This document shows, in pieces, positions 3,069 through 58,323 of a DNA stretch of 59,762 nucleotides. Numbering within the stretch: the stretch's first letter is position 1; each line of letters opens with the position of its first letter. The position numbers and the translations under genes are program-made. The DNA is from a virus. Taxonomy: Duplodnaviria > Caudoviricetes. Location of the stretch: positions 1-59,762 of IMG/VR virus record IMGVR_UViG_3300033148_002141; one strand, given 5' to 3'. The notes beneath the pieces were generated by a model. That model searched no databases, was not told the DNA's origin, and was given only the letters and a program-made list of their open reading frames with translations.

Positions 3069-3200
3069 ACCCGAGGGCTTGTAAGTAGCCTCAAGCGCAG
3101 TCCAGGAGTAACCCTGTTTTGCCTTCAACGGCTCCTACCATAGGCCCTTTGACGAGGCCCTTTGAACGGATGTTTACCGCAGCCACGAAATCAGCATTGG
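3030..3200 (-). ncRNA. putative TnpB reRNA/omegaRNA (right end + flanking guide TCGCTGCCCTCCTCGC...)
   Basis: Established TnpB architecture: the reRNA derives from the tnpB 3' end/right end and the guide from the flank; 5' boundary is only approximate. Confidence 0.6.
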
Positions 3201-4286
3201 CCGAGTAGCCGCAATGCTTACACGCAAACTCAGATTGACTCTTGCGATTGCCCTTCTCGCAATGCCCGCATTTTGGGCAGGTGCGACTGGTATTGCGCGG
3301 GTCAACCAGCATGACGAGCACACCGGCGAGCTTGGCCTTGTACTCAATAAAAGACCTCAGTTGGAAGAAAGCCCAACTACTGAACTTGGCCCGCTGGCTG
3401 CGTCGAACCGTTGTGCCCTTCCGGATTCCCTTGAGATTTTCAAGGACGATTGCGGAACGGGATGCCTTTGCTTTGCCAACGAGCCTTTTGCTGATTACGT
3501 GGTTCGTGTTCCTCTTGAAATTGGATTCCTTGCGTCTGATTTTGACGAGCCGACGTTTCGCCGACTTGGTGCCCACCGATTGCAGTACCGCCCGCCGGGT
3601 GGCGTACTTTACACGGTTGGCCTCGACCGCATCCCCGGAAAATGTCTCCCCGGTCGAGTCGGTGGCGATATTGACGATGCCCAGATCAACACCCAGTACG
3701 TCGGTAGGCTCCAAGGGTGCCCCGTCGGGCATTTCGATCGTACACAGCAGATAGAACTTGCGGTTGCGGTAGATCAGGTCTGCCTGACCCTTGATTCGAC
3801 CCTGGCGGTGCTTCTGGTACGCCCCGCACACGAACGGTATTCGGAGCCGGCCGGTCAATGCCCACAAGCTGACTTCCGTCAGACCCTTGAAGCTCAAAAC
3901 CCGCTGATCGTAGCAGATTGCCCCGCGCGGCTTGAACTTGGGACACTTACTTTTGTTCCGTTGGAAACACTCGACCGCCTTGGCAATGGCCCGAATGGCC
4001 ATCTGAGACGACAGGCCGAACTTTTCGCGGATGTCGTAGTAGGCCCGGCGGTGCAGGGAAACTTGCCCGAAGACCTTATCTCGGAACCCTACTTCCGCGG
4101 CATAGGTGGCGGCCTGGTTGAACCGCTCCATCGTGTCGAGCAGGTCTTTCTTCTGCTGGCGAGTTGGCAGAAGTTGCAGTTGGAGTGTGAGCTTCATATT
4201 GGAAGTATACCCAAAACCAATCCTGTAGTCAAAGAAAGGACGCATTCTTCCGCCCACTAAAGTGGACGGTATCTTGCGTAACACAC
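3050..4286 (-). mobile_element. IS200/IS605-family TnpB-only (IS1341-like) element
   Basis: Minus strand: left-end hairpin CCGTCCAC-TTTA-GTGGGCGG preceded by GATA, with target TCAT (4290-4287); right-end hairpin CCCTCGG-GTTTAG-CCGGGGG preceded by CAAG, ending TGAC at 3050; no tnpA. Confidence 0.88.
3091..4197 (-). CDS. tnpB: RNA-guided endonuclease TnpB
   Basis: Start MKLTLQLQL; RuvC motifs GVDLG, VLENL, NADFVAAVNI; Zn ribbon CPKC...CKHC; 368 aa. Confidence 0.95.
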   Translation of the reverse strand: MKLTLQLQLLPTRQQKKDLLDTMERFNQAATYAAEVGFRDKVFGQVSLHRRAYYDIREKFGLSSQMAIRAIAKAVECFQRNKSKCPKFKPRGAICYDQRVLSFKGLTEVSLWALTGRLRIPFVCGAYQKHRQGRIKGQADLIYRNRKFYLLCTIEMPDGAPLEPTDVLGVDLGIVNIATDSTGETFSGDAVEANRVKYATRRAVLQSVGTKSAKRRLVKIRRKESNFKRNTNHVISKRLVGKAKASRSAIVLENLKGIRKGTTVRRSQRAKFSSWAFFQLRSFIEYKAKLAGVLVMLVDPRNTSRTCPKCGHCEKGNRKSQSEFACKHCGYSANADFVAAVNIRSKGLVKGPMVGAVEGKTGLLLDCA

Positions 4287-4502
4287 ATGACACGAAAACC
4301 ACAAACCTTCGGCCAACGTGTTCGCGCTCTGCGCGGGGCTCGAACGCAAGATGAGTGCTGCCGGGCCGCCGGAATCACTCGGCAAAGCACTTGGTCCGAG
4401 ATCGAAACCGACAACGCGAATCCGACCCTTTCGACGCTACGCAAAATCGCCAAGGGCCTGGGATTCACGCTATCCGAACTGTTTGACGAGGCTGAATCCT
4501 GA
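4287..4502 (+). CDS. XRE/Cro-CI family HTH transcriptional regulator
   Basis: FGQRVRALR...TQDECCRAAGITRQSTWSEIE...NPTLSTLRKIAKGLG pattern. Confidence 0.9.
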   Translation: MTRKPQTFGQRVRALRGARTQDECCRAAGITRQSTWSEIETDNANPTLSTLRKIAKGLGFTLSELFDEAES

Positions 4503-4520
4503 TCGGCAGAGAATCAGTCT

Positions 4521-4793
4521 TCAGAGCGTGCATGTCAGTTCCCCTGAGTTTTGGCCGACCGGCCCCATTCCCTGCGCCTGTCGCCGCTTATTTACCCAAT
4601 GCAAAATTGATTCGGCCGACCTGGGATCGTAATAGCCCTGCCTCGCATACTCGATCACCGTAGTCCGGGCCAACCCAGTCCACCGCGAAATGAGGGAATA
4701 AGTAAGATGGCAAAGTTTTTTCTCTGCCCCTTTGGGCTTTCGTGGCATTTTTTTTGGCATTTTCGCCCAATTCATCAAATCTGCTGTTGACAC
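4521..4793 (-). CDS. small basic putative DNA-binding protein (start uncertain)
   Basis: LTYSLISRWTGLARTTVIEYARQG is HTH-like; convergent with the XRE gene. Confidence 0.45.
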   Translation of the reverse strand: MSTADLMNWAKMPKKMPRKPKGAEKKLCHLTYSLISRWTGLARTTVIEYARQGYYDPRSAESILHWVNKRRQAQGMGPVGQNSGELTCTL

Positions 4794-4816
4794 AACGCGT
4801 GAGTGTCGTATATTCT
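4787..4816 (+). promoter_or_regulatory. sigma70-like promoter overlapped by an imperfect palindrome (candidate operator)
   Basis: TTGACA 4787-4792, TATATT 4809-4814 or TATTCT 4811-4816; GACAC-AACGCGTGA-GTGTC dyad. Confidence 0.65.
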
Positions 4817-4925
4817 ACAGGAACCACAACCGAAGGCAACCACCGTCTGAGCACCACCTGGCCTTGCCCGGATTCTTATGGTTGCCTTTCCCGCCGGGCA
4901 AGGCCGCTTTTTGAAAGGCCACCCC

Positions 4926-5153
4926 ATGAAACCCGTTTGGAAGAACGATCATCTCACTGTCGTGTTGCACAAGCCCGAATTGTCGATCTTGGCGAAAGCC
5001 CGCAAAATTGGGCAAGCATTGCACGCAATGGCTCAGGAAACAGGGCAGCCCTTGATGGACGCCATCGACGCCATTGCTCCCCATCCCGACATTATTGCCC
5101 GCCGTCCCGGCATTTGGGAGCAATTCTCGGACACACAGGCGGAAGAGGAATAG
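4926..5153 (+). CDS. hypothetical protein
   Basis: ATG 4926 after GAAAGG; first gene downstream of the promoter. Confidence 0.6.
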   Translation: MKPVWKNDHLTVVLHKPELSILAKARKIGQALHAMAQETGQPLMDAIDAIAPHPDIIARRPGIWEQFSDTQAEEE

Positions 5154-5162
5154 GGCCGCCTT

Positions 5163-5211
5163 GCCCCGACCCTGCTTCCTGGGGGTCCACCCCCCAGGGG
5201 TAGGGCGGGGC
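5163..5211 (+). terminator. long GC-rich stem-loop (terminator or processing site)
   Basis: GCCCCGACCCTGCTTCCTGGGGG-TCCA-CCCCCAGGGGTAGGGCGGGGC; weak U-tract. Confidence 0.5.
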
Positions 5212-5239
5212 CGATTGTTGTAACCTATTATGCCACCAT

Positions 5240-8627: not shown

Positions 8628-9404
8628 ATGAATGATTTATCCCATCTATCACGCGAAGCATACGGTCATTTCCAAGAAGCCAATCACTTCCACGGCCAGG
8701 TGACCAAGCATGTCGGCGATGCAGTTGACTGCGCTCTACGGACCGGCCGGGCATTGCTGGCCGCGAAGAAGGCCGTGCCACATGGACGGTGGACAGCCGA
8801 ATGTGAGCGGCTCTTTCACGGCAGCGCCCGTACAGCCCGGTTCTACATGGAGTTCGCCAAACGGGTATCCGCCATTCCGCAATGGCAATCAGCCGCAATG
8901 ACCTTGCTCGAAGGAAGCCTGAAGGGTGCCGCCGAAGCCGCCAAACTTGTAGCCACGCAATCGCCGGCTGCATTGACACCGCCTATAGTGGGGGACGGCG
9001 AAATAGAGCCGGACACATCACCCGTGTCTGAAGCATCCCCGGAAACGCCCCCAGAATCGCCTGTGACGCGACCTTCCGAGAGCCGGCCCGACACACCACC
9101 CCCGCCTCCAAAGCCCGCCAGAGAGGCGCCTGAGGCCGATTACGGCAAATGTCCGAATTGCCTGAGTGCAGAGTGGGACGAAGACGAGTTTGGCGTCTCG
9201 TGTGCCAAGTGCCACCACCCTTGGGGGGAGCCGGCTGGCGATCCCGATGAAGATCGGGTGAAGATTCAGCGGTTGAAGACGATCAAAACCGTGGAGGCAA
9301 CAATGCGGGCGTTCGATGATTTGCAGTATTTGCAGGCCCGAGCTTGGCACAACGACGCAATTCGCCAGTGCAAAGCATTGTTGAAAATGGCCCAAGAGTG
9401 GTAG
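8628..9404 (+). CDS. DUF3102-like phage protein with Pro-rich linker and Zn ribbon
   Basis: ALRTGRALLAAKKAVPHGRW...SARTARFYM; CPNC...CAKC. Confidence 0.65.
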   Translation: MNDLSHLSREAYGHFQEANHFHGQVTKHVGDAVDCALRTGRALLAAKKAVPHGRWTAECERLFHGSARTARFYMEFAKRVSAIPQWQSAAMTLLEGSLKGAAEAAKLVATQSPAALTPPIVGDGEIEPDTSPVSEASPETPPESPVTRPSESRPDTPPPPPKPAREAPEADYGKCPNCLSAEWDEDEFGVSCAKCHHPWGEPAGDPDEDRVKIQRLKTIKTVEATMRAFDDLQYLQARAWHNDAIRQCKALLKMAQEW

Positions 9405-12254: not shown

Positions 12255-12824
12255 ATGCTCACCCTAAACGAGATTCTCGACCAATTACATGTGTGTAGCG
12301 AAGCCCGCCAGTGGGCCGCCACACAACCGGACGCCCGAACGGCGTGGTGCAATTGCCCGCGCGGTGATCGGTTGATTTGGCTGGCGGGTATGCTCGGCAT
12401 TGATCGCAAGACAATTGCTGCCGCAGTTTGTGATTGCGTCGAATTGGCGTTGCCATTCGTGATTAAACACAACGAGCGCCCACGGAACGCCATCACTGTG
12501 ACGCGGGCGCGGCTTGCAGGCGAGGCAACACTGGAGGATTTACGGGCCGCCGCCGCTGCCGCCGACGATGCCGCCGACGCTGCCTGGGCCAAAGCCGCCT
12601 GGGCCGACGCTGCCTGGGCCAAAGCCGCCTCGGCCGCCGCCGCTGCCGCCGAAGACGTCACCTGGACCGCCGCCTCGGCTACTGCCGCCGTTGCCTGGAC
12701 CGTTGCCGCCGCTCCGGCTGATGCTAGAAGCGACGTACTTAAGCAATGCGCTGACATCGTGCGGTCGCGAATCACGTGGGAGCAGATTGCAGACGGAATT
12801 GAGAACACCTTTCCTTCAGCCTGA
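12255..12824 (+). CDS. Imm5-like, Ala-rich helical repeat protein (paralog 2)
   Basis: First ~110 nt nearly identical to the 11671 gene; 30-nt internal tandem repeat at 12573-12631. Confidence 0.75.
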   Translation: MLTLNEILDQLHVCSEARQWAATQPDARTAWCNCPRGDRLIWLAGMLGIDRKTIAAAVCDCVELALPFVIKHNERPRNAITVTRARLAGEATLEDLRAAAAAADDAADAAWAKAAWADAAWAKAASAAAAAAEDVTWTAASATAAVAWTVAAAPADARSDVLKQCADIVRSRITWEQIADGIENTFPSA

Positions 12825-12837
12825 CGGGAACAATACG

Positions 12838-13101
12838 ATGTGCAATGATTCCACAAATGAAGTCACTATGCTTCTGGATATTACTCGTGACTTCATCTGC
12901 ACATATGGTGGACCGACGAATGTGTGTGCGAGCGGCGATAGACTTGGTGACGCGCTGGAAGATGGCGAATGCCGCCGCTTCTTGACGGACATTGCTGCAA
13001 GCGAGGACAGTGCCAGGCAACTTTGTGCGACGGCATTGCTGGGATTGAGTCTCGCCATGCTCGTGATTGAATTCGATGCAGAACACGCGGAGGCGAATTG
13101 A
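12838..13101 (+). CDS. hypothetical protein, C-terminal paralog of 16575-16841
   Basis: DGEC..FL...A....A.QLCA.ALLGL....AEAN* shared. Confidence 0.65.
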   Translation: MCNDSTNEVTMLLDITRDFICTYGGPTNVCASGDRLGDALEDGECRRFLTDIAASEDSARQLCATALLGLSLAMLVIEFDAEHAEAN

Positions 13102-13925: not shown

Positions 13926-13985
13926 GTGGCATACCGGAAAGCACACACTAAAGGTTGCGAGCACCATTCTAAATTAGGAGACGCG

Positions 13986-14246
13986 ATGTTCCGAATGGCG
14001 CAAATCTGTACCTCTGGCGAATGCGGTGGAAGCTGCTACAAATGCCGCTGCGCCAAGCTGGAGGAACTCGGCCAGCAATTACAGGCCGAGCTTGCTGAAC
14101 TGGAAGCCGCCGTAGCGGCCATGCGGGACTGTCAACAGGAATACTTCCGCATCCGCAGTCGGGCCGCTTTGATCGAAAGCAAGGCTGCCGAAAAGCGGGT
14201 GGACGCTATTCTTCGACAGAAACGCGAGCCGTCGCTGTTTGATTGA
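13986..14246 (+). CDS. chimeric small Cys-rich / coiled-coil protein
   Basis: N-half matches the 16841 gene (QICT.GECGG.CYKCRC); C-half matches the 23187 gene (MRDCQ.EY...AE..VD.ILR). Confidence 0.7.
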   Translation: MFRMAQICTSGECGGSCYKCRCAKLEELGQQLQAELAELEAAVAAMRDCQQEYFRIRSRAALIESKAAEKRVDAILRQKREPSLFD

Positions 14247-14288: not shown

Positions 14289-14594
14289 ATGCCTGAATTG
14301 CCTATTGATCCCCCCATCCGCGATTACGAGGAACGCGAAGCCGAAATCGAGGCCGAGGAAGAGGACGCTTATCGCCGCGCTGATTGGGCGTACCACGAGG
14401 AATGCAAGGCGGAAGACCCGCCGTCCTATTCGGCGCTTCGCCAAGCGCTCACCTTGGCTGCGGACCTTAACGGCCGGATTGCCTATGGAGCCGCACCGAC
14501 GGCCCAGCCGGAACGATATGGATATTACATCGACGGCGAATACTGCGGCCCGGATTTGAGAAACGCTCTACTACGAGCAGCGAAAAACACGTGA
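14289..14594 (+). CDS. hypothetical protein, C-terminal paralog of 15179-15403
   Basis: GGAGG SD; ALTLAA...RIAYGAAP...ERYGYYIDGEYCGPDL shared. Confidence 0.7.
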   Translation: MPELPIDPPIRDYEEREAEIEAEEEDAYRRADWAYHEECKAEDPPSYSALRQALTLAADLNGRIAYGAAPTAQPERYGYYIDGEYCGPDLRNALLRAAKNT

Positions 14595-14629
14595 TGGGTG
14601 ACTTTGCCCACTTCAAGAAGGAGAACCCA

Positions 14630-15163
14630 ATGGCAACCGTAACGAAGAGTACGATCGAGGACGTCCTAAGTACACACGTGGCATGGCTGCGAGGGAGTCC
14701 CCATGGAGTAATGGCCGATTTGCGAAACGCCGATCTGCCAAACGTCGATCTGCGAACCGCCGATCTGCAAAGTGCCGATCTGCGAAACGCCGATCTGCAA
14801 GGAGCCGATTTGCAAACCGCCGATTTGCATAATGCCGATGTGCGATTCACCGATCTGCACAATGCTGATCTGCGAAACGCCGATTTGCATAATGCTGATC
14901 TGCGAAACGCCAACCTACGACGCGCCGCTCTACGCAACGCCAACCTGCAACACGCCGATCTGCAACACGCTGATCTGCGAAACGCCGATCTGCAACACGC
15001 CGATCTGCGAAACGCCACTTTGCAAGGCGCTAATTTGCAAGATGCAGATCTGCGGTTTGCAGATTTGACAAGGACGTCCCTGTGTGGCGCGAACTTCGAT
15101 GGGGCGATAATTATGTATCGTGGTCATGTGGTACGGATTCAATTTCATGTCGTGGATGCCTGA
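14630..15163 (+). CDS. pentapeptide repeat protein (A[D/N]Lxx)
   Basis: H..WL.G...G..ADL N-cap followed by >20 ADLRN/ADLQH repeats. Confidence 0.92.
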   Translation: MATVTKSTIEDVLSTHVAWLRGSPHGVMADLRNADLPNVDLRTADLQSADLRNADLQGADLQTADLHNADVRFTDLHNADLRNADLHNADLRNANLRRAALRNANLQHADLQHADLRNADLQHADLRNATLQGANLQDADLRFADLTRTSLCGANFDGAIIMYRGHVVRIQFHVVDA

Positions 15164-16574: not shown

Positions 16575-16841
16575 ATGAGCGAACGGAAAACATCCACGAT
16601 GCGGAACATGCTCGAAGAGCACATACGCGGCTTCGTCCGGAAGAGCGGTGGACGGAAGAAAGTGATTGAAGCGCGCGACGCTATCCAACGTGAGGCGCGG
16701 GACGGCGAGTGCCACTTGTTCCTGGCAAGAATGGCCGAGAGCAAGGTGGGGGCCAAGCAGCTTTGCGCGGCGGCGCTGCTCGGCCTAATTGTTGCCTCGA
16801 TTGTGGCCGAGTCCGATGCGCGGCGTGCGGAGGCGAATTGA
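16575..16841 (+). CDS. hypothetical protein, paralog of 12838-13101
   Basis: AGGAGG SD; shared C-terminal half and identical junction GCGGAGGCGAATTGATGGGCA. Confidence 0.7.
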   Translation: MSERKTSTMRNMLEEHIRGFVRKSGGRKKVIEARDAIQREARDGECHLFLARMAESKVGAKQLCAAALLGLIVASIVAESDARRAEAN

Positions 16842-17224
16842 TGGGCAAAACAGTACAAATCTGCACCGCCGGCGAGTGCGGCGGAGAATGTTACAAATGC
16901 CGCTGCGACAGGCTGGTAGAGCAGAACCAGCAATTGCAGACTCAGTTTGACGATTTGTACACCGCAGTAACCATCACGGCAGATTGGTCACAGATCATTG
17001 ACCGTCGCAACGAACTTCTGCTTCTGAAAGAAACAACGCGCCTCACTTCGGCTCAAGCGGCTGAATTGGACAATCTTGAGCGGTCCGCAGACATCCTGTT
17101 AAGGCTTCTCTGGCATGAAATGTGTTTCTGCTTTGATGCGGGCGTGCTCCGCCCGCATTGTCGAGTGGTACGACGAGCCGACGCGGGCCGCGGAATTGAT
17201 ACGCGAATCGGGAGCGGACATTGA
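16841..17224 (+). CDS. chimeric hypothetical protein
   Basis: N-terminus like the 13986 gene; middle (RRNELL...LTSAQAAELDNLER) like the 19588 gene; 3' part overlaps an alternative-frame ORF 17115-17288. Confidence 0.55.
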   Translation: MGKTVQICTAGECGGECYKCRCDRLVEQNQQLQTQFDDLYTAVTITADWSQIIDRRNELLLLKETTRLTSAQAAELDNLERSADILLRLLWHEMCFCFDAGVLRPHCRVVRRADAGRGIDTRIGSGH

Positions 17225-18627: not shown

Positions 18628-18714
18628 GGAAACCTAAACGACCGACCTGAGCACAAGCAGTCGGGCAGGGAATTGCCACTCGTGTGCTATGCTCACAATG
18701 AAAGGAATGCTCCC

Positions 18715-19575
18715 ATGAAGCCCTACGAACTCACAGACCTGAACGCCCAGATCTACGATGGCTGTCAATCTGGCGAGGGCGTCGAATATACGGCTCTGCC
18801 TGACGGTGATGCTGGGATTGAGCGTCGCCTTGGTTGCTGCCGAGAACGACAAATAATGCGCGAAGCCGAATTGATGACCACGACGACCGTTGTTAGATCA
18901 CAAGATGAGTTGCTGTCATGCTACGACGGCGACGTCGTGATTGAGTGCGAAGTCAATTTGCCGTTACTACCGCTATCGGCGACCGGTTCCCTGACGTTTA
19001 AGCAGCGAATTCTTCTCGGGTCGATCGAAGCCGGCGGGTCACTCAAGGCCCGCAAGGCGATCGAGGTACGCGGGGGAATTAAGGCCCACGGGTGGATCGA
19101 GACCCACAGGTGGCTCACCGCCGGTGGGTCGATCAAGGCTGGCGGGTCGATTAAGGCCCACAAGTTGATTAAGGCCCGCAAATCAATCAAGGCCGGTGGG
19201 GCAATCGAGGCCGACGGGTGGATCGTTGCCGGCAGGTCGATTGTGGCTGGCGAGTGGATTCTGTCGATCCCTTTTGAGGTCCACTGTGACGTCCTGGTGA
19301 CCAAGCTACTACCGTTTGGACGGTCATTCTGGGCGGCAATGCCGCCATTACGGCAATGGGCTTCGCAGATTCTTGACGACGCTTATTGCTGGCAGTATTT
19401 TCGTAATCTTCTCAGCGCAGCCGAACAGCGCAATGTGGTGGCGTGGGACGGCTGGCACCCGATTCTACGGGCGCAGCTCGGCATGTTTTTCGGGCTTCGG
19501 GAGGCCGTGCCGGGCACCGAATTACTGGCCACGCACACGGATGGCGATGCGGAAGTTGCCGCCGCCAATAAGTGA
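18715..19575 (+). CDS. hexapeptide (GGSIKA) beta-helix repeat protein; N-terminus is a degenerate copy of the 19941 N-terminus
   Basis: Repeats GSIEAG/GSIKAG; MKPYELTD..QIYDGCQSGEGVEYTA vs MKLYKLTD..QTHGGCQWGEGIEHTA; alternative start at 18874. Confidence 0.65.
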   Translation: MKPYELTDLNAQIYDGCQSGEGVEYTALPDGDAGIERRLGCCRERQIMREAELMTTTTVVRSQDELLSCYDGDVVIECEVNLPLLPLSATGSLTFKQRILLGSIEAGGSLKARKAIEVRGGIKAHGWIETHRWLTAGGSIKAGGSIKAHKLIKARKSIKAGGAIEADGWIVAGRSIVAGEWILSIPFEVHCDVLVTKLLPFGRSFWAAMPPLRQWASQILDDAYCWQYFRNLLSAAEQRNVVAWDGWHPILRAQLGMFFGLREAVPGTELLATHTDGDAEVAAANK

Positions 19576-19587
19576 GAGGAGCAGTTC

Positions 19588-19929
19588 ATGACGTCCGACG
19601 CCTTCACACTCAAAGACCTTTCATCGCCAGATCGGGAATGCGCGATGCTACAAGACGCCTTGCGGAATCAACTGGTTGAACGCAACGTCAAAGCATACCG
19701 ACAATTAAACCGGCTGGCAGCGGCCGTTATCGCAGTCTGGCCACGCATCACTCGACGCCGCGCCGAACTGATTGATTTGGGGAAAGATTCGCACCTCACT
19801 GCCGCCCAGGCCGACGAACTGCAAAACCTCCAGCGGCTGACTGATGCCCTGATAGACGTTCTTCAGCCCTTCGCACTGGAAGAGGCTGGCGACATCATGG
19901 AAGAACTCAAACGGCGAGACTTGTGGTAG
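19588..19929 (+). CDS. hypothetical protein
   Basis: GAGGAG SD; shares a segment with the 16841 gene. Confidence 0.65.
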   Translation: MTSDAFTLKDLSSPDRECAMLQDALRNQLVERNVKAYRQLNRLAAAVIAVWPRITRRRAELIDLGKDSHLTAAQADELQNLQRLTDALIDVLQPFALEEAGDIMEELKRRDLW

Positions 19930-20679: not shown

Positions 20680-20841
20680 ATGTTTCGTTCACTGGCTGTA
20701 ATCGTAATGTGCGCAATTGTCCTGTGGCTGACCTGGACGGCCAGCCAACAACCGCAAGAACCGCGAGAGGGCATCAGGCAAGACGCCGAGCGATTCGTCT
20801 CGCCAATAACAGAAAGGGTAGAGCGATGGCAGAATCGTTGA
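20680..20841 (+). CDS. small membrane protein
   Basis: AGGAGG SD; MFRSLAVIVMCAIVLWLTW (not in the ORF track, read manually). Confidence 0.5.
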   Translation: MFRSLAVIVMCAIVLWLTWTASQQPQEPREGIRQDAERFVSPITERVERWQNR

Positions 20842-20930
20842 TTGCGACTGTGCTGTTCGGCGCGTTTTCGATCGGATGGGCCGTGTGGCTGTTCGTTTAC
20901 ACCGGCCGATTGCATCGCGAGCCGGAATGA
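20826..20930 (+). CDS. small single-TM protein
   Basis: MAESLIATVLFGAFSIGWAVWLFVY. Confidence 0.45.
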   Translation: MAESLIATVLFGAFSIGWAVWLFVYTGRLHREPE

Positions 20931-21059
20931 CGGCAAGGACCGTATCGTGCGAATATTCGAATAGAAGTTTGTGCGAAGCGCGTGGTGGCCGTCTCGCTAC
21001 GTCCAATCTACGCGCGGGGAAAATGCTGTCCGCGCCGCGGCCTGGAAAGAATCAAAACC

Positions 21060-21275
21060 ATGAAGATCACACGCGAATGCCCGACATGCGGGCATAAGTA
21101 TGAAGTCGAGGCGTGTCCGGAATGTGGCGGCACAGGATACGTCCGAAAGCCAAAGAAGACTTTCACCGGCATTCTCCCTGAGCGCCACGTTCCCTGCGCA
21201 GCCTGTGGTGGCACTGGCGAAAAGGATTTCGTATGGCTCAAACAGTTGCTATCGTCGGTGGAGACACAAACATGA
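21060..21275 (+). CDS. DnaJ-type CxxCxGxG zinc-finger protein
   Basis: CPECGGTG...CAACGGTG. Confidence 0.7.
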   Translation: MKITRECPTCGHKYEVEACPECGGTGYVRKPKKTFTGILPERHVPCAACGGTGEKDFVWLKQLLSSVETQT

Positions 21276-21523
21276 CATTCGATCCCACAACCGAAACCAA
21301 AGAAGAGTTCATGGCCCGCTACCAGGCTGGTACCCCCGCGATGCCCGACATATTTCTGCGGCACTTAATCGCATTGCCTTGCGACTGCGAGGATGGCGGC
21401 GGCCCGACGCATTGGGCTGCCGTGTCTCGTGATCCATTGCACATTCAACAGCATTTGGAGTTGTACGCACCGTCCGGGACGCCTTGGCCGGCAGACATCG
21501 AACAACCCGATTCTCAGGTATGA
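21272..21523 (+). CDS. hypothetical protein
   Basis: ATGA overlap; ALPCDCEDGG..HWA. Confidence 0.6.
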   Translation: MTFDPTTETKEEFMARYQAGTPAMPDIFLRHLIALPCDCEDGGGPTHWAAVSRDPLHIQQHLELYAPSGTPWPADIEQPDSQV

Positions 21524-22782: not shown

Positions 22783-23126
22783 TGGCTAAACTCGGAGAAA
22801 TTATCTTCCGGCATATCGCCAATTCCGGAATCATTGTTGTTCAGTACGGGGATCACTATTGGGCATTCCCAGACGTACCTTATGCGCCCGATCCTTCGGA
22901 GCTCTGGGAGTGCCCTGATATCCTTGTGTGTTGGGCGATAGTTCTCCACGATCGCCCGGGCAAGGATCGATGGGAAATGCGGGTGCGCGTTTCTGAATGG
23001 CGAGACAACCCTGAACCATACCTTGTGGTGCGCAACGGCCGATGGGAGTCGTATCTTGACTGCCCGGAATTGGACGAACTACTGAATATGTTGCCAGAGC
23101 GGTTCTTCGTCCAGATGGAATACTGA
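22779..23126 (+). CDS. hypothetical protein, paralog of 6097-6438
   Basis: Full-length similarity to the 6097 gene. Confidence 0.72.
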   Translation: MMAKLGEIIFRHIANSGIIVVQYGDHYWAFPDVPYAPDPSELWECPDILVCWAIVLHDRPGKDRWEMRVRVSEWRDNPEPYLVVRNGRWESYLDCPELDELLNMLPERFFVQMEY

Positions 23127-23186
23127 GAATTACCCCCCCCAACTATGCCCTAATACGGTCGCAGAAAGACCGTGGAATGGTGATTT

Positions 23187-23420
23187 ATGCCCAAAACCCC
23201 AAAACATCGTGCTGGCAACCAACGCCATCGCAAGTGCCCCAAGTGCCAGAAGTTGAAGAAAGCGAACGCCCGATTGCGAAAGGAGCTTCACGATCTCCAA
23301 CTCGCCGTCAGTGAAATGCGCGATTGCCAACGTGAATACCTCTCCACGCACTGCAATGTCGATTTGGTTGCCGCCAAGAACGCTGAAGCCTGGGTGGATT
23401 CCATACTCCGGAATGGCTGA
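23187..23420 (+). CDS. hypothetical protein
   Basis: C-half homologous to the 13986 gene. Confidence 0.65.
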   Translation: MPKTPKHRAGNQRHRKCPKCQKLKKANARLRKELHDLQLAVSEMRDCQREYLSTHCNVDLVAAKNAEAWVDSILRNG

Positions 23421-23444
23421 TCCTCCAATTCCGTGACAGCTTCC

Positions 23445-23473
23445 TTGACGGCTCTTTATCCTCAGGCTAAATT
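23445..23473 (+). promoter_or_regulatory. sigma70-like promoter
   Basis: TTGACG (23445-50), 17-nt spacer, TAAATT (23468-73). Confidence 0.7.
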
Positions 23474-23479
23474 AGTGGA

Positions 23480-23910
23480 TGTGACTATCACTCGTCCCGT
23501 GTTAACTTGTGGTCCACTGTCATGTGTGCGGTTCTTGGACTGCTGAGAGGCGGAGATTGGAATACCCCTCCGAAAGCCGGAGGAAGGCCGCCACGGTACG
23601 GAAGGACGGACCGGAGCAGGCATGGAGACCGCCAGGGGTCACAAGTGGCACGGGCGAATATGGCCGACCGCAATCATTGCGGTAACGACAGGCCAACTCG
23701 GCATAGCTGGAGGGACACATACTCCGCGGCCCCGCCGATCGCTGAGGCGACAAGAGGGTCGAGTGGGTACTCAACCAACCCAAGCGAATCCGGTAAGACC
23801 GTTTCCGGGGAGACTATCCCGGCGCAGATTGGTTGCGGCGAAACCCTGACTCGTCGTTAGGTACACCCACCGAGGATGGGGCCGTTCGTTCGGCCGTGCG
23901 AACCTCGTTA
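23480..23910 (+). ncRNA. candidate large structured non-coding RNA of unknown family
   Basis: No credible ORF; long helix 23492-23515/23635-23657, nested helices and hairpins, 10 GGA motifs in 23537-23626; upstream promoter. Confidence 0.65.
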
Positions 23911-23969
23911 AATATGCGGAGCGGGTGGGGGGAATTGCGCGTGTAGCACAAACTCCAGGAGAATTGCGA

Positions 23970-24224
23970 ATGGGCTTTGCACCATCATACGACCGCTGGT
24001 TGGAAAAGCACCGTCACGAGGTACGTGCTTTCAAGGAATGCGAGCGCTGCCAAGGACGCCGCTTTGGTGACTGTTCGCCTCAGTGCAGGTATTTCTGGGA
24101 AACAGCCTCAGACGCCGAAGAGGAGGCTGCCTGTCGTGCTTCCGAGGATGTGAAGCCGCTGCCTGGGAAGAAGACGTACTACGACGCTTACCCGACGGCC
24201 CCCGAGAGGATTAGCCAGGGTTGA
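23970..24224 (+). CDS. small Cys-containing hypothetical protein
   Basis: AGGAG SD; CERC...CSPQC. Confidence 0.55.
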   Translation: MGFAPSYDRWLEKHRHEVRAFKECERCQGRRFGDCSPQCRYFWETASDAEEEAACRASEDVKPLPGKKTYYDAYPTAPERISQG

Positions 24225-24906
24225 TGACGCTGCGAACGGCGAATGCACCGTAGCGGAAGTTGACGCTGGCCAGCGGGATGATTCCGAATCCGGCGTCACC
24301 CCAGTTGGTGCCATACGAATTGGCGTAGAGGGCCCGGTCACGATCCAGGAGTTCAAGCAAGACGCAACTGTGGGCTCGCCAGCCGAATACGACGGGCCAC
24401 CCTTTGAGCAGGGCTGTGCCGAGTTCCTCGATCGAATCAATGTCAACGAATTCGTCGATGCGGTGCTTTCGGGCGTGTTCGTCGAGCAGGGCTTGCGGCG
24501 GCCTGCGACGCCAGCCATTGGACCGGGGCCAGACGCTTTCGGGCAGAATTCCGACATCCCGGGCGTGCTGGAGGTTGTCGTCGATTGACGATCCACGATC
24601 TCGGCCGCCGCTGGTGAAGGCGTAGATGCTCCACGGATTCAGGGACGTGAACGGGAGCTTCTGCCACGCTTGCATCACCATGACGCTCTGCGTTGTGGAT
24701 TCGGTGGCACATGATCCGACGCCATTCTGGTCCAGAATCTGACGCACGTAGGGTTTCAGGGTCACCCCTTCGGCAATCAATTCGGGCCACTTGTCCCGTG
24801 GAATCACGTCCACCACGTCTTCGAGCTTGGGACAGATTTGGCCGTACTTGCTACGCCGCGGCAGACAGCCGGGGACGCGCCCTGGAGGAAAGAATGCTCG
24901 CCTCAT
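24211..24906 (-). CDS. papain-like (C1 family) cysteine peptidase
   Basis: DQNGVGSCA (Q/C), AHSCVL (H), ANSYGTNWG..GF (N). Confidence 0.88.
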   Translation of the reverse strand: MRRAFFPPGRVPGCLPRRSKYGQICPKLEDVVDVIPRDKWPELIAEGVTLKPYVRQILDQNGVGSCATESTTQSVMVMQAWQKLPFTSLNPWSIYAFTSGGRDRGSSIDDNLQHARDVGILPESVWPRSNGWRRRPPQALLDEHARKHRIDEFVDIDSIEELGTALLKGWPVVFGWRAHSCVLLELLDRDRALYANSYGTNWGDAGFGIIPLASVNFRYGAFAVRSVINPG

Positions 24907-25562
24907 TGTCGGCCCTCCCAATATTGAACCCGTTCCACCACGTCGGCCCCGAGCGGTTCAACGGCGACGACGTGCAATCCATCCGCGCGGATGGAACCGA
25001 TTGCCAAGAATGGAACGGACACGCCTTCTCGTCGTGCCCGATTCAGAAACGCCGTGATCCACGACGGCTTGCTCCCGTCCGGCAGCTTCTCGTCTCGATC
25101 CGCCAATCGGCTCCGCGTCTCGGACGTTTCCAGATAGGCCCGGAGTCGTGACAGATTCACCGCTTCCTCCGCCGGCCGGCCCTGCGATTCGTAGATCGCC
25201 CCGATGAACAATTCCCCCGGAATCGGGGGCGGCGGAGGGTTTGGGGCTGTTCCCCTCACCGTGAAGCTGGCGGAGCCGTACTGGATTCCTCCGTCTCGAA
25301 TCACCGCCACCGCCACCATGCAGCGGCCCGGTTCTGGAAACGCCAGCCAGAGGAACTGTTGACCTCGATTCCAGCCGGCCACCCCGACGGCCGTGGTGGC
25401 TTTCGGCTCGGTAATGATCCGGGCCGTCGTCGTGTCGTTTGGGGACAGCCCTTGAACCTGCACAAGGAAATGCCGGCCGGCAACTGGTTGGTCCGGGGGC
25501 GGGGCAATCCGAATCGGCTCACCCGCCCCCAACAGGAGTGGTATCAATGCCAGGATTCGCAT
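24903..25562 (-). CDS. secreted protein with Pro-rich linker
   Basis: Signal peptide MRILALIPLLLGA; PNPPPPPIP linker. Confidence 0.65.
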   Translation of the reverse strand: MRILALIPLLLGAGEPIRIAPPPDQPVAGRHFLVQVQGLSPNDTTTARIITEPKATTAVGVAGWNRGQQFLWLAFPEPGRCMVAVAVIRDGGIQYGSASFTVRGTAPNPPPPPIPGELFIGAIYESQGRPAEEAVNLSRLRAYLETSETRSRLADRDEKLPDGSKPSWITAFLNRARREGVSVPFLAIGSIRADGLHVVAVEPLGADVVERVQYWEGRQ

Positions 25563-25575
25563 GTCGCCCTCCCGA

Positions 25576-25992
25576 TCAGCTAAACAGCGAGATCAATTGC
25601 ATGATGAGCGGGATCAGCTTCTCCAGGAACGCCAGAATCGCGTCCCAGTCCAGCGACGGGTCACTGAATGCCTGCGGATTCTCCGTCACGAGGTCATTGA
25701 ATACCTCGACAGCCAATTCGGCGGTGTCCCGTCCCTCCAATTCGCCGGCCTTCTGCTTTTCGGCCAGCAGTCGGCGAACGTTTCGGAACGTCAAACCCAA
25801 TTCCCGCCGCTGGCGGAAGGTCAATCCTCGCCGAATCTTGGCGGGTGCCAATTCCGGCGTGTCAGAAGTCACGGTGGCTCCCCCTCCCCAAGTGGAATCG
25901 GGAGCAGCCAGTTGATTCGGGGCCGCTGCCCCCAAGGCAAACGCAACCACAGTCAAGAGCACCAACAGACCGACACAGAAATAGTTGGACAT
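25576..25992 (-). CDS. membrane protein (N- and C-terminal hydrophobic segments)
   Basis: AAGGAG SD; MSNYFCVGLLVLLTVVAFALG...DWDAILAFLEKLIPLIMQLISLF. Confidence 0.7.
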   Translation of the reverse strand: MSNYFCVGLLVLLTVVAFALGAAAPNQLAAPDSTWGGGATVTSDTPELAPAKIRRGLTFRQRRELGLTFRNVRRLLAEKQKAGELEGRDTAELAVEVFNDLVTENPQAFSDPSLDWDAILAFLEKLIPLIMQLISLFS

Positions 25993-26111
25993 CGGATTCT
26001 CCTTTGTGAAGATGGGAAACATACTCGATTCTATTGTGCCTGCCCCGCGACTTCAAGCTTCTTCTTGGCCTTGTCGAAGATCATGTCCCCCCTTAGGGGT
26101 TGTGTCTCGAC

Positions 26112-29779: not shown

Positions 29780-30229
29780 ATGGGCTACATCGCTGGAAAG
29801 CAAACGATAGCGGACCAAATCGCCATTGCGGCCAGGCACTTGAACGCTGTCAGTTACGTGTATCCGAGCCTGGCCGATGGTGTGTTGCTGACGGCTGCCG
29901 CTGGCGCATGGGCCATGCCAGACCCAATAACCTATACAACGATCCTCCCCGCGAATCAGGTTCCCTTTGATTACGTATTGCATTTCGTGTCCATCGAAGC
30001 AATCAGCGACAACGATGTATACCAACTCTTCCTGTACAGCGGCGCCGATGGCGAGGAAACCCAAATCACGGCGAAGCGATTCGTCCGGACGGACAAGCGG
30101 GACTCCGTATTTGGGCTGAAGATTGCGATGCCGATTCAGAAGGCGAATACACCAATCAAGGGGATATTGGCGTGCAAAAGTGCGTCGCAATACACGGCGA
30201 GGGTGTCGCTGGAATACTACCCGTACTGA
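29780..30229 (+). CDS. hypothetical (putative virion-associated) protein
   Basis: Operon context. Confidence 0.6.
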   Translation: MGYIAGKQTIADQIAIAARHLNAVSYVYPSLADGVLLTAAAGAWAMPDPITYTTILPANQVPFDYVLHFVSIEAISDNDVYQLFLYSGADGEETQITAKRFVRTDKRDSVFGLKIAMPIQKANTPIKGILACKSASQYTARVSLEYYPY

Positions 30230-30254
30230 GGAAGCGTATTACAGGAGCAATGCA

Positions 30255-30473
30255 ATGCAAGATAGGGCCAGACCATTGAAAACCGTTCGGCAGCACAACG
30301 CGGAGCGGCTGGCATTGCATAAGAACAGCCGTAAGCCGACGCCTTCCGGTATTGCGTGCCCGTCATGTGGTGCGGAAATGGTTGGACAATCCGACACAAT
30401 TCTGTTATCGCATCCGCCTCAGGTGATGATTTATTGCCCGGAATGCGGACAACGCGAAACCGTTTACGTATAG
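30255..30473 (+). CDS. zinc-ribbon protein (copy 1)
   Basis: GIACPSCG...CPECG. Confidence 0.75.
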   Translation: MQDRARPLKTVRQHNAERLALHKNSRKPTPSGIACPSCGAEMVGQSDTILLSHPPQVMIYCPECGQRETVYV

Positions 30474-30522
30474 GGGGAAAGACGTGGAAATCACCCAGCT
30501 TACCTGTAATGAGGAGTGAATC

Positions 30523-30843
30523 ATGACTGGCGAAATGTACATGAAAGAATCGGCTGCAGGCGTGACGCCGTACGCGCACCTACGCGACGACTCCAACGGG
30601 CAGCTATGGGATTGCGTGGGTCCGCAATTCACCACCGAAGTATTGGAGAGTGTCACGAACTGCAATAATGATTTGACCATGATTGCGCCATATCGCTATC
30701 ACGGCGACATTCCGAGCGGTGTGCCTCGGGGACGATATTTCCTCGAATACTTCACGAGGACCACTGGCCAAAATCCGGCATGGGATGACGATCCAGAAGG
30801 CGAACACGTAGCTAAAGGCCAAATTGGCCTATGTAGCAATTGA
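30523..30843 (+). pseudogene. truncated paralog of 31494-32030
   Basis: Near-identical to the first ~90 aa of the 31494 product, then unrelated tail and stop. Confidence 0.65.
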
Positions 30844-30913: not shown

Positions 30914-31132
30914 ATGCAAGGTATGGCCAGGCCATCGAAAACCGTTCGACAGCATAACGCGGAGCGGCTACAATTCTACAAGAACACCGGCAGGCGGAAG
31001 CCGGCCGGCATTGCGTGCCCGTGGTGTGGCGAGGGAATGGTTCAAGAATCCGACACAATTCTGTTATCGGAGCCGCCTAAGGTGATGGTTACTTGCCCAC
31101 ACTGCGGACAACGCGAAAGCGTATATCTATAG
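30914..31132 (+). CDS. zinc-ribbon protein (copy 2)
   Basis: GIACPWCG...CPHCG. Confidence 0.75.
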   Translation: MQGMARPSKTVRQHNAERLQFYKNTGRRKPAGIACPWCGEGMVQESDTILLSEPPKVMVTCPHCGQRESVYL

Positions 31133-31141
31133 GAGGCAGGT

Positions 31142-31465
31142 ATGGAAATCACGTTGACTATTCCACCCGAGAAAGAAGCCCAGGTGATGACGTGGTTTCT
31201 TTCGGTGCATCCCAACGACAGACACGTAACGGTTCAGCAGCCGAACCCGGAATACGTGTCACCCGAAGAAACGCCCGACGTGCCGGAAACCCTTTGGGTC
31301 TTGCAGCCGGCTTTCACGGATCAGGAGTGGTTGGAATACGTGGTAGAAGACATGCTCTGGCAGCGGATTCTACAAGGGGCGGATCGGCAACTCGAAGCGG
31401 AAGCCAAGGCCAAGCGGCCGAAGAGGGCTGAACACATACGGCGTGGGCGGACGGTACAACGCTAA
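31142..31465 (+). CDS. hypothetical protein (possible fibre assembly factor)
   Basis: AGGAGG SD; PNPEY..PEETP motif. Confidence 0.6.
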   Translation: MEITLTIPPEKEAQVMTWFLSVHPNDRHVTVQQPNPEYVSPEETPDVPETLWVLQPAFTDQEWLEYVVEDMLWQRILQGADRQLEAEAKAKRPKRAEHIRRGRTVQR

Positions 31466-31493
31466 TCAGCTTACCTATAATGAGTGGTGAATC

Positions 31494-32030
31494 ATGGCTG
31501 GTGAAATGTACATGACCGAATCGGCGGCCGGCGTGACGCCGTACACACATTTACGCGACGACTCCAACGGGCAGCTATGGGATCGCGTGAATGAGGAGTT
31601 CACCACCGAGGTCTCGGCGAACGTCACGAACTACAATCTCGATTTGACTATGATTGCGCCGTATCGTTATCACGGCGACATTCCCAGCGGTGTGCCTCGG
31701 GGACGATATTTCCTCGAATACTTCACGAGGACCACTGGCCAAAATCCGGCATGGGATGACGATCACAAAGGGACCAGCGCACCGTTCGATTACAACGGGT
31801 CGACGATTCTCCCAACTGCGCTGGACGTGCTTTCTGCGGGTATGGCGTCCATCGAATCCGCGACTACGCCGGAAGCAGATTCCGTCTACACCGTCATCGC
31901 CGGGCGTTTCCACGCGACCATTTCCGGGACCACGCTCACCATCTACGAAAACGACGACACCACCGTACACGCGACCAAGACAGTAGCTACTGACGCGGGT
32001 GCTGCCCCGGTGACGGGAGTCAGTACATGA
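31494..32030 (+). CDS. putative virion-associated protein
   Basis: C-terminal GTTLTIYENDDTT...PVTGV. Confidence 0.65.
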   Translation: MAGEMYMTESAAGVTPYTHLRDDSNGQLWDRVNEEFTTEVSANVTNYNLDLTMIAPYRYHGDIPSGVPRGRYFLEYFTRTTGQNPAWDDDHKGTSAPFDYNGSTILPTALDVLSAGMASIESATTPEADSVYTVIAGRFHATISGTTLTIYENDDTTVHATKTVATDAGAAPVTGVST

Positions 32031-57480: not shown

Positions 57481-58323
57481 TCAGGACGCCAATTTGTTCC
57501 TCATCGTATGATCCACCGGCTTGGATCGACTTGTATCCCACGGGTCTATTCCAGCCTCTACGTGTTCCCCGTACCACGCGAGAACGTCGCCCAACCACAT
57601 CAAGCCCCAGTCCTCGCCTTCCGCAGTCTTTATTCCCCGCCGTTTCAAGTCCCGGTGGATCGACGCGATGCTTTCGCCGTCCTTCTTCCGCCGGTACATC
57701 TCATCCACCAATGCACGCTCGGCAAAATCAGGTTCGTATCGCTCTACTCGCCGCTCCCCGCCCCGATTAGACTCCTGCGTCCAAGTTCGCTTGTAACCAA
57801 GGCGACGTGTGCCCTGATAGGGGAGCCCCTTGCTCTTGAAGTATCGCGCCCTCGCCTTCATTTGCTGCGCTTTCGACCCGATTTCCATCGCCAGAAAAGC
57901 CTTGTGCATGTGAAGGACGAACCGGCCAAGCTCACTTGCCATGTCCAACGGCTCGCCACCGACCATCGGAAGGCCCGTGATGTAGACGGCGACCCCACGA
58001 CGGAAGAATTCCTCCAGCGTATTCAGCGCATCCCGTATGCTCCAACTGATCCGATCCAACTTCACCGCAACCACTTTGTCACCCCAGCGGCACTCGCGCA
58101 GAAGTTTCGATGCTTCCGGACGATTCTGGAACTTCGGTGCCCAGACCACACTGTCATCGTCCACCCGACAATGGACGAATTCCCCGTCGAGTCGCTTCGC
58201 AAATTCGCGTATCTCTGACTCCTGCGAAGCCGCAGAATCCTCCTCTTTGTCACTGAATAGCCGCACAAGCCCGAAAATGCGCGGGGTGGTTTTCGCCCTG
58301 CCGTTTCCTGTAGAATGTGCCAT
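57481..58323 (-). CDS. serine recombinase (resolvase-like catalytic domain + recombinase domain), atypical active-site motifs
   Basis: VRLFS...SAASQ, RPE...LL, GD.VVAVKLDRISWS, S..GRF, LGYKR. Confidence 0.82.
   Translation of the reverse strand: MAHSTGNGRAKTTPRIFGLVRLFSDKEEDSAASQESEIREFAKRLDGEFVHCRVDDDSVVWAPKFQNRPEASKLLRECRWGDKVVAVKLDRISWSIRDALNTLEEFFRRGVAVYITGLPMVGGEPLDMASELGRFVLHMHKAFLAMEIGSKAQQMKARARYFKSKGLPYQGTRRLGYKRTWTQESNRGGERRVERYEPDFAERALVDEMYRRKKDGESIASIHRDLKRRGIKTAEGEDWGLMWLGDVLAWYGEHVEAGIDPWDTSRSKPVDHTMRNKLAS

Follow-up and report, generated by a model that had tools for sequence, protein, structure and literature searches.

A non-coding gap behind a promoter-like site in a Caudoviricetes phage, possibly a leader RNA with a structured 5' module

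The DNA studied here, called the window throughout, is the whole of IMG/VR virus record IMGVR_UViG_3300033148_002141 (Duplodnaviria; Caudoviricetes), a complete entry of 59,762 bases that is classed as linear with a completeness estimate of 89%, and our subject is a gap between two small genes at positions 23421-23969 which does not code for protein. We read this gap as a promoter-bearing non-coding region with a cis-acting 5' module, located in a leader of ~490 nucleotides (nt) that precedes a gene of 84 amino acids (aa), and we give this reading a probability of roughly 40%. According to it, a sigma-70-type promoter at 23445-23473 would start a plus-strand transcript near 23480, which would read through into the cysteine-rich 84-aa gene. 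The first ~215 nt of the leader would fold as a module made up of a rod (166 nt, with a three-way junction) and, after it, a 35-nt hairpin (23661-23695), and the remainder of the leader (~23698-23955) would contain isolated hairpins at most. The module would act in cis on the fate of the transcript, possibly by protecting its 5' end, by exposing its long helix to double-strand-specific processing, or by controlling downstream expression. An initial annotation, made from the letters alone, had described 23445-23910 as a promoter-driven, highly structured non-coding RNA of ~430 nt; its coordinates, helices and promoter-like site are present in the sequence exactly as it gave them, and its proposal of a new large phage RNA stood in part. 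The non-coding, promoter-led character of the stretch and the lack of a known family are established and the 166-nt rod is a plausible fold, whereas a single structured RNA of 430 nt, standing alone, was not borne out. The elements that this reading joins are the following.

23421-23969: non-coding gap of 549 nt between the 77-aa and 84-aa genes, delimited by the list of open reading frames (ORFs) and by codon usage
23445-23473, plus strand: sigma-70-type promoter-like site TTGACG-17-TAAATT, from a consensus promoter scan
23970-24224, plus strand: orphan cysteine-rich 84-aa gene with an ATG start at 23970, a Shine-Dalgarno sequence AGGAG at 23957-23961 and a codon log-odds of +0.136

The absence of any credible ORF in the gap, noted initially by eye, was upheld by codon usage. 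Using a codon table trained on 14 long genes of this phage, and 12 genes outside the training set as controls, all six gap ORFs scored (53-117 aa) were negative, with -0.02 to -0.26 log-odds per codon, whereas the 12 controls, including both flanking small genes, were all positive (+0.07 to +0.32), and in-frame segments of 100 codons from real genes were never below +0.028. The periodicity of guanine-cytosine (GC) content collapses at ~23395-23700, with a small rise at 23725-23785 that corresponds to no ORF of appreciable size; this measure is crude and a poor gap detector, as flat runs occur over small real genes too. The description of the surroundings as wall-to-wall coding is only roughly true, with longer flat runs of GC periodicity at 20776-21346 and 12541-12991. 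We consider it very improbable that small protein genes were missed here, such as a 117-aa ORF with a TTG start (23507-23860) or a 75-aa ORF with an ATG start and GGAG upstream (23622-23849). These frames are indeed open, and the lack of Pfam and PHROG families among the 11 gap ORFs examined is weak evidence, because most real genes of this phage are also without one. The codon scores and the lack of a consistent GC periodicity matching an ORF argue against such genes, and a search of the protein collection with the 117-aa ORF brought up neither a homologue (6 candidates, 0 scored) nor the ORF itself, whereas the 84-aa gene did find itself there. Furthermore, in a variant fragment from DNA run X1, described below, three of the seven changes that fall in the 117-aa frame are synonymous, which could favour coding and yet is not an excess (P 0.32), and the other four are radical (R>G, T>M, T>K, T>P); two other frames have 0/4 and 1/4 synonymous changes, and in no frame do the substitutions look like those of a coding sequence. 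A recoded gene was rejected as well: reading TGA as Trp (table 4) or TAG as Gln gives nothing credible, and long table-4 frames run straight over real genes of the opposite strand. A conserved protein-coding frame, which the initial annotation had named as contrary to an RNA, was looked for and none was found. The gap is non-coding.

The promoter-like site, composed of TTGACG (23445-23450), a 17-nt spacer and TAAATT (23468-23473), was confirmed in the sequence and by the promoter scan, being one of two consensus-scan sites in 22800-24400, where 0.5 are expected. For a looser pattern (TTGACN16-19TAWWWT), the window contains three sites where 0.35 would be expected, a count of three that none of 100 shuffles reached, and the sites at 4787, 19373 and 23445 are all on the plus strand, inside the plus-strand gene block. 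The best of them, TTGACA-17-TATATT at 4787-4814, is near-consensus and adjoins a helix-turn-helix (HTH) gene in a switch-like region, a position that would fit phage use of host sigma-70 promoters. The site at 23445-23473 is taken seriously because of these three plus-strand sites against 0.35 expected, the best of them beside the HTH gene; it appears to be a credible promoter, though only a consensus match. The third site, TTGACG-17-TATTTT at 19373-19401 (plus strand), is inside a 300-aa ORF (18673-19575), ~190 nt before a gene starting at 19588, and perhaps acts as an internal promoter.

No terminator-like site was found on the plus strand in 22800-24400, which spans from the promoter through the end of the 84-aa gene, nor any promoter-like or terminator-like site on the minus strand within the gap. 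Since no intrinsic terminator separates the gap from the next gene, a stand-alone RNA is not indicated, and the simplest reading of the missing plus-strand terminator is one unit made of the promoter, the ~490-nt leader and the 84-aa gene, the latter being the likely cargo of the promoter.

The predicted folding of the leader concentrates at its 5' end, with the following parts.

23492-23657, plus strand: domain 1, a 166-nt rod with a basal helix, two internal loops and an apical three-way junction
23594-23613, plus strand: hairpin CGGU-A-CG / CG-G-ACCG, an arm of the three-way junction (z-score -3.64; 0/200 shuffles as good)
23661-23695, plus strand: hairpin UGGCC/GGCCA enclosing ACCGCAA-UCA-UUGCGGU (z -2.91; 2/200 shuffles)
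23805-23822, plus strand: hairpin CCGGG-GAGACUAU-CCCGG, the one helix where a compensatory change was seen, of ordinary stability (z -1.30)
23698-23915, plus strand: the remainder of what had been annotated as domain 2, without structure beyond chance (mean pair confidence 0.65)

Domain 1, folded as 23488-23662, reaches -76.1 kcal/mol, compared with -62.2 +/- 4.1 for its shuffles (z -3.38, with 2/200 as good). Its minimum free energy (MFE) and centroid structures nearly coincide, the identical fold is recovered within contexts of 451 and 531 nt, and the mean pair confidence is 0.86. The basal helix joins 23492-23515 with 23635-23657 in arms of 24 and 23 nt, and is imperfect, with four G-U pairs and a bulge; above it come an asymmetric internal loop and two 5-bp helices split by a second internal loop, and then the three-way junction, which carries GGCGG/CCGCC (enclosing CCUCCG-AAAGC-CGGAGG) and CGGU..ACCG. 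This helix and the inner ones, first picked out by eye, are found in both the MFE and the centroid folds, and TGGCC/GGCCA around ACCGCAA/TTGCGGT is likewise present at 23661-23695; the impression of many G-U pairs did not last, as only 5/57 pairs of domain 1 are of this kind. Domain 2 as a whole (23658-23915) has a z of -0.96, with 33/200 shuffles as good, and the sub-parts proposed in it are at chance level (GTGGGT/ACCCAC, z -0.76; AACCAA/TTGGTT, z -1.40), as is 23697-23846 with z +0.30. The Shine-Dalgarno region was not found to pair robustly with the leader, and the 3' part of the centroid is unpaired.

The phage lineage of the gap sequence was seen in one hydrothermal-vent metagenome run. 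The variant fragment comes from X1, a DNA run labelled as hydrothermal-vent metagenome, in the form of two abutting 151-nt contigs with a depth of 2, probably the opposite ends of one fragment; they correspond to 23565-23715 and 23715-23865, with three and five differences respectively, 23565-23865 being the only part of the gap covered. Seven of the eight differences could be located by table. Two of them (A>G at 23602 and 23603) are in the loop of hairpin 23594-23613, and a third (C>T at 23607) turns a G-C pair of the same hairpin into G-U, so that the pair is kept on the plus strand only. In hairpin 23805-23822, C>T at 23806 and G>A at 23821, both in the same 151-nt record, replace C-G by U-A; the chance of a pair-preserving double change was ~0.018 by simulation. 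At 23751 and 23798, the changes disrupt MFE pairs whose probabilities are low (0.21 and 0.58). Together, the changes in X1 give no more than a hint of selection on two hairpins.

Searches for known RNAs and for relatives of the gap returned no family. Rfam 15 (4227 models) gave no match over the whole window at gathering thresholds, and at E<=10 none in 23300-24050 or in 23475-23670; within 23650-23930, only mir-2071 appeared, with 12.4 bits against a cut-off of 100 (E 9), which is noise. GOLLD, ROOL, raiA, OLE, 6S, SRP, RNase P, group I/II introns, riboswitches and ribozymes were all without an Rfam match, and ARAGORN found no tRNA or tmRNA genes in the window, in agreement with the initial statement that no family was recognisable. 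Various specific candidates were also discarded. A retron was rejected, with no RVT_1 match at E<=1 anywhere in this 89%-complete record and control genomes positive. A TnpB omega-RNA was rejected as well, the sole TnpB-like gene (3094-4302, minus strand) being ~19 kb from the gap. Against a self-splicing intron, the 77-aa protein encoded before the gap is complete by comparison with its paralogue, the 84-aa gene has its own Shine-Dalgarno sequence and ATG, and no intron model matched. For an attP site, a tyrosine integrase was not found and a serine recombinase sits at 57.8 kb; for a replication origin, the gap has no iterons or repeats and is not AT-rich.

In the homologue searches, the gap had no match longer than 12 nt to the rest of the window, and blastn found no homologue among plasmids and no match to the gap DNA among GenBank phages, which also lack a match to a 587-aa structural protein of this phage. 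A degenerate probe made from the 117-aa gap ORF, which also tested for conservation of the frame, was run over three collections, where 20 stretches in IMG/VR, 352 in the JGI metagenomes and 256 in the GTDB genomes matched the pattern and none was confirmed; the 77-aa gene and two others of 255 and 115 aa had no relatives in IMG/VR. A synteny route through the papain-like peptidase encoded beyond the 84-aa gene led to 3 IMG/VR loci, 80 of the 155 metagenome relatives and one contig of a metagenome-assembled genome. What the 80 metagenome and 3 IMG/VR loci consistently share with the window is only the minus-strand cassette 24211-26022 containing that peptidase, with a few weak matches elsewhere. 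Against these peptidase-linked loci (566 kb), nhmmer returned nothing for the gap at E<=10 and blastn only four matches of 20-41 nt (E 0.69), and a single-sequence covariance model of domain 1 recovered, in 565,984 bases, only itself and one noise match at E 7.6. A 27-nt match in G001 was inside a coding ORF and was dropped as chance, and the more distant phage G004 has only structural genes in common.

These searches bear on whether the gap encodes a stand-alone RNA of a new family, 170-430 nt long, which would end or be cut before the 84-aa gene and act in trans or as a scaffold. Such an RNA would account for the promoter, the defined 166-nt domain, the lack of a known family and the compensatory and wobble changes in X1; nonetheless we find it doubtful, as it would have no terminator-like 3' end, its domain 2 is unstructured beyond chance, neither a second copy nor a homologue appeared in the searches made, and its complementary matches to other phage regions do not exceed 12 nt, which is chance level. 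A discrete RNA of a new family, covering at least the rod and the hairpin (~215 nt) and up to ~430 nt, with a function of its own such as regulation or counter-defence, seems to us equally unlikely.

Several results weigh against a structured leader. The whole stretch folds no better than its shuffles, both as 23470-23920 (451 nt, plus strand; z -0.78, 23/100 as good) and from promoter to start codon (23480-24010, plus strand; z -0.17, 39/100 as good), so the description of ~430 nt as highly structured was not upheld; of the proposed test of folding energy against shuffles, domain 1 came out in favour, and the whole stretch and domain 2 did not. The genome background, built from 175-nt windows on a 25-nt grid with MFE regressed on GC (2384 windows; 120 blocks of 500 nt), places domain 1 at z -2.34 on the plus strand, with 25/2384 windows at least as good, in a comparison that favours domain 1, its window being framed on the helix and the genome windows on a grid. 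A 175-nt window as stable as domain 1 is held by 13/120 of the 500-nt blocks, mostly coding; in a genome this GC-rich, domain 1 is good without being exceptional. The seven-change set of X1 taken as a whole does not spare structure, breaking 2 pairs against 3.11 expected (33% of random sets as low) with an energy change of 9.2 against 10.4 (38% as low), and the compensatory pair rests on one DNA fragment; a compensatory double change may also stem from template switching in a DNA hairpin. Searches of the viral, metagenome and genome collections yielded no homologue of the gap, and neither did those of 566 kb of DNA from related phages. Among the sequencing runs listed for the stretch there is no RNA run, the only one being a DNA run. 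The minus strand of 23470-23920 (z -2.15, 1/100 shuffles as good) also beats the plus strand.

Many of these results are what would be expected if the gap were a neutral spacer, that is, accessory DNA at a mosaic junction, moron-like, with a promoter that serves the 84-aa gene and helices that arise by chance in DNA of 58-60% GC. The whole-region energies, the equally stable blocks elsewhere in the genome, the chance level of most domain 2 helices and the X1 change set all agree with such a spacer, and the gap is in a variable part of the genome. Against it stand the z of -3.38 and well-defined ensemble of domain 1, the hairpins at z -3.64 and -2.91, the one compensatory change with its chance of ~0.018, and the preference for the plus over the minus strand relative to the genome background; moreover, to our knowledge phage genomes seldom retain 550 nt without function. 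Taken by itself the spacer is somewhat unlikely, and it is nearly as likely as the leader.

The strand evidence is mixed, with the promoter, the genome background and the G-U pairs favouring the plus strand. Domain 1 on the minus strand has a z of -2.99 against its own shuffles, whereas against the genome background it is ordinary (z -0.78, 449/2384 windows as good). The 5/57 G-U pairs of domain 1 would be A-C on the opposite strand, and the change C>T at 23607 would there yield a C-A mismatch. An element acting as DNA or from the minus strand, be it a protein-binding, recombination or replication site or a 3' untranslated tail of the cassette 24211-26022, could draw on the minus-strand folding energies, on the C-G to T-A change, which is equally compensatory in a DNA hairpin, and on the convergent gene ends that overlap at 24211-24224. 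We regard it as improbable: the features of an origin are missing as described above and the cumulative GC skew turns near 31-32 kb, not at the gap; the four G-U pairs of the basal helix are mismatches in DNA, and among the 64 DNA inverted repeats found in the window this helix is not one of the 25 longest; domain 1 is ordinary on the minus strand and no signal for transcription of that strand was found in the gap; and a relative, L003, has the convergent layout (overlap at 8656-8705) without the gap.

In comparison with known systems, a leader of this kind would be most like the leader-embedded RNAs of phages P4 (CI) and P1 (C4) or the processing hairpins of early transcripts. The P4 CI and P1/P7 C4 RNAs are ~70-80 nt long, are cut from the leader and pair with repeated targets in the same transcript. 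As would be the case for the gap, they are structured RNAs made just downstream of a phage promoter, within the leader of the genes that follow, and the setting is similar, with a regulatory layout of the temperate type, an HTH repressor-like gene and sigma-70 promoters. Unlike them, the module of the gap is ~166-215 nt long, its processing is only supposed, no repeated complementary target was found, and no sequence or Rfam relation exists. The RNase III-type processing hairpins of T7 and lambda share with the gap a long imperfect helix in an intergenic region of an early operon; classical sites of this type are simple hairpins of 50-60 nt with one internal loop, whereas the helix of the gap is predicted to enclose 119 nt with a three-way junction. 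Morons of temperate phages are units of a promoter, one accessory gene and a terminator. The gap and the 84-aa gene resemble them in having a sigma-70-type promoter of their own, a single orphan gene and a position at a variable junction between conserved modules; they differ in a leader of ~490 nt, which is far longer than usual, and in that no terminator was found. Finally, GOLLD and ROOL are presented in two reports as large ornate RNAs that are often phage-borne (bioRxiv 10.1101/2024.12.08.627333; PMC5737381). The gap has in common with them a large non-coding phage stretch without coding capacity, and differs in being shorter, in having no Rfam match, adjoining tRNA genes or family of homologues, and in that only one third of it is structured beyond chance.

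If the 5' module is real, it would be a new structured RNA without relatives, in a phage lineage made almost entirely of orphan genes, and it would join the small number of phage leader RNAs with control over expression; if it is in addition a discrete conserved RNA, it would found a new family. The case is built on a single sequence and a single variant fragment, and bears on no long-standing question. Its main value is one of caution, since helices found by eye in DNA of 58-60% GC are often unsupported by shuffling controls.

With respect to the genome around the gap, plus-strand genes occupy the left end up to 24224 and constitute the early gene block, which includes the HTH gene of Cro/CI type, a Rad52-like gene, a 5'-3' exonuclease, a helicase and a D12 methyltransferase. 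The minus-strand cassette 24211-26022 converges on this block, and it is followed by tail-fibre-like and structural genes. Almost none of the phage proteins tested has a Pfam or PHROG family, and no cultured relative of the phage was found. As the cassette is all that the peptidase-linked loci consistently share with the window, the gap and the 84-aa gene sit in the variable far end of the early block; temperate phages tend to carry accessory units at such a place.

The left border of the gap is given by the following gene.

23187-23420, plus strand: complete 77-aa gene (phrog_15937, E 1.9e-4)

This border is firm, because the 77-aa protein aligns with its 106-aa paralogue (13926-14246) up to residue 76/77 (E 3e-9). 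Both proteins share 43% identity over 58 residues and the motif MRDCQ.EY, and would constitute a family of small cysteine-rich coiled-coil proteins inside one phage, to which a 171-aa ORF at 16709-17224 is related by eye only.

On the other side, the 84-aa protein found only itself in the protein collection, and the identical protein is encoded on 3 contigs. In a look-up against a protein atlas, its best score was 0.89 with no family, and rows described as NinF-like or zinc-finger (0.79-0.80) are leads only; a supposed relative of the gene in L002 was rejected as a spurious match of acidic low complexity. The end of this gene and that of the minus-strand peptidase gene overlap by 14 nt (24211-24224), leaving no room for terminators, so that the convergent transcripts should overlap. 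Three genes make up the cassette 24211-26022. One product is the papain-like peptidase (236 aa), in which Q, C, H, N and W positions are invariant; the other two measure 148 and 219 aa, the shorter one having a hydrophobic stretch at its N terminus, and Pfam recognises none of the three. Many uncultured phages conserve the cassette as a module, judging from the 155 metagenome relatives of the peptidase, with parts of its two partner genes common to at least a dozen loci, and it may be a lysis module.

Other parts of the window yielded observations of their own. The region 4287-5215 looks like an early genetic switch, with the 71-aa HTH gene of Cro/CI type at 4287-4499 (plus strand), a 90-aa gene at 4521-4793 (minus strand) and a small gene at ~4926-5153. 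The very GC-rich hairpin that follows at ~5150-5215 ranks with the stablest 175-nt windows of both strands and resembles an early terminator. Next to this region, the 403-aa TnpB-like gene at 3094-4302 (minus strand) matches Cas12f1-like_TNB (E 5.7e-23) and OrfB_IS605 (E 2.7e-9); its guide RNA is expected just beyond the 3' end, below 3094, where no Rfam model matched. The longest inverted and direct DNA repeats of the window come from a 190-aa pentapeptide-repeat-like protein (ADLRNADLQ...) encoded at 14591-15163 (plus strand). Adjoining the tail-fibre genes, ORF translations indicate a tandem duplication of a two-gene unit (30123-30843 and 30914-32030), each copy with a small CxxC...CxxC protein and a protein that begins M(T/A)GEMYM.ESAAGVTPY.HLRDDSNGQLWD. 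Near the right end of the record, the serine recombinase is encoded at 57481-58323 (minus strand), with a Resolvase domain at E 9.7e-16.

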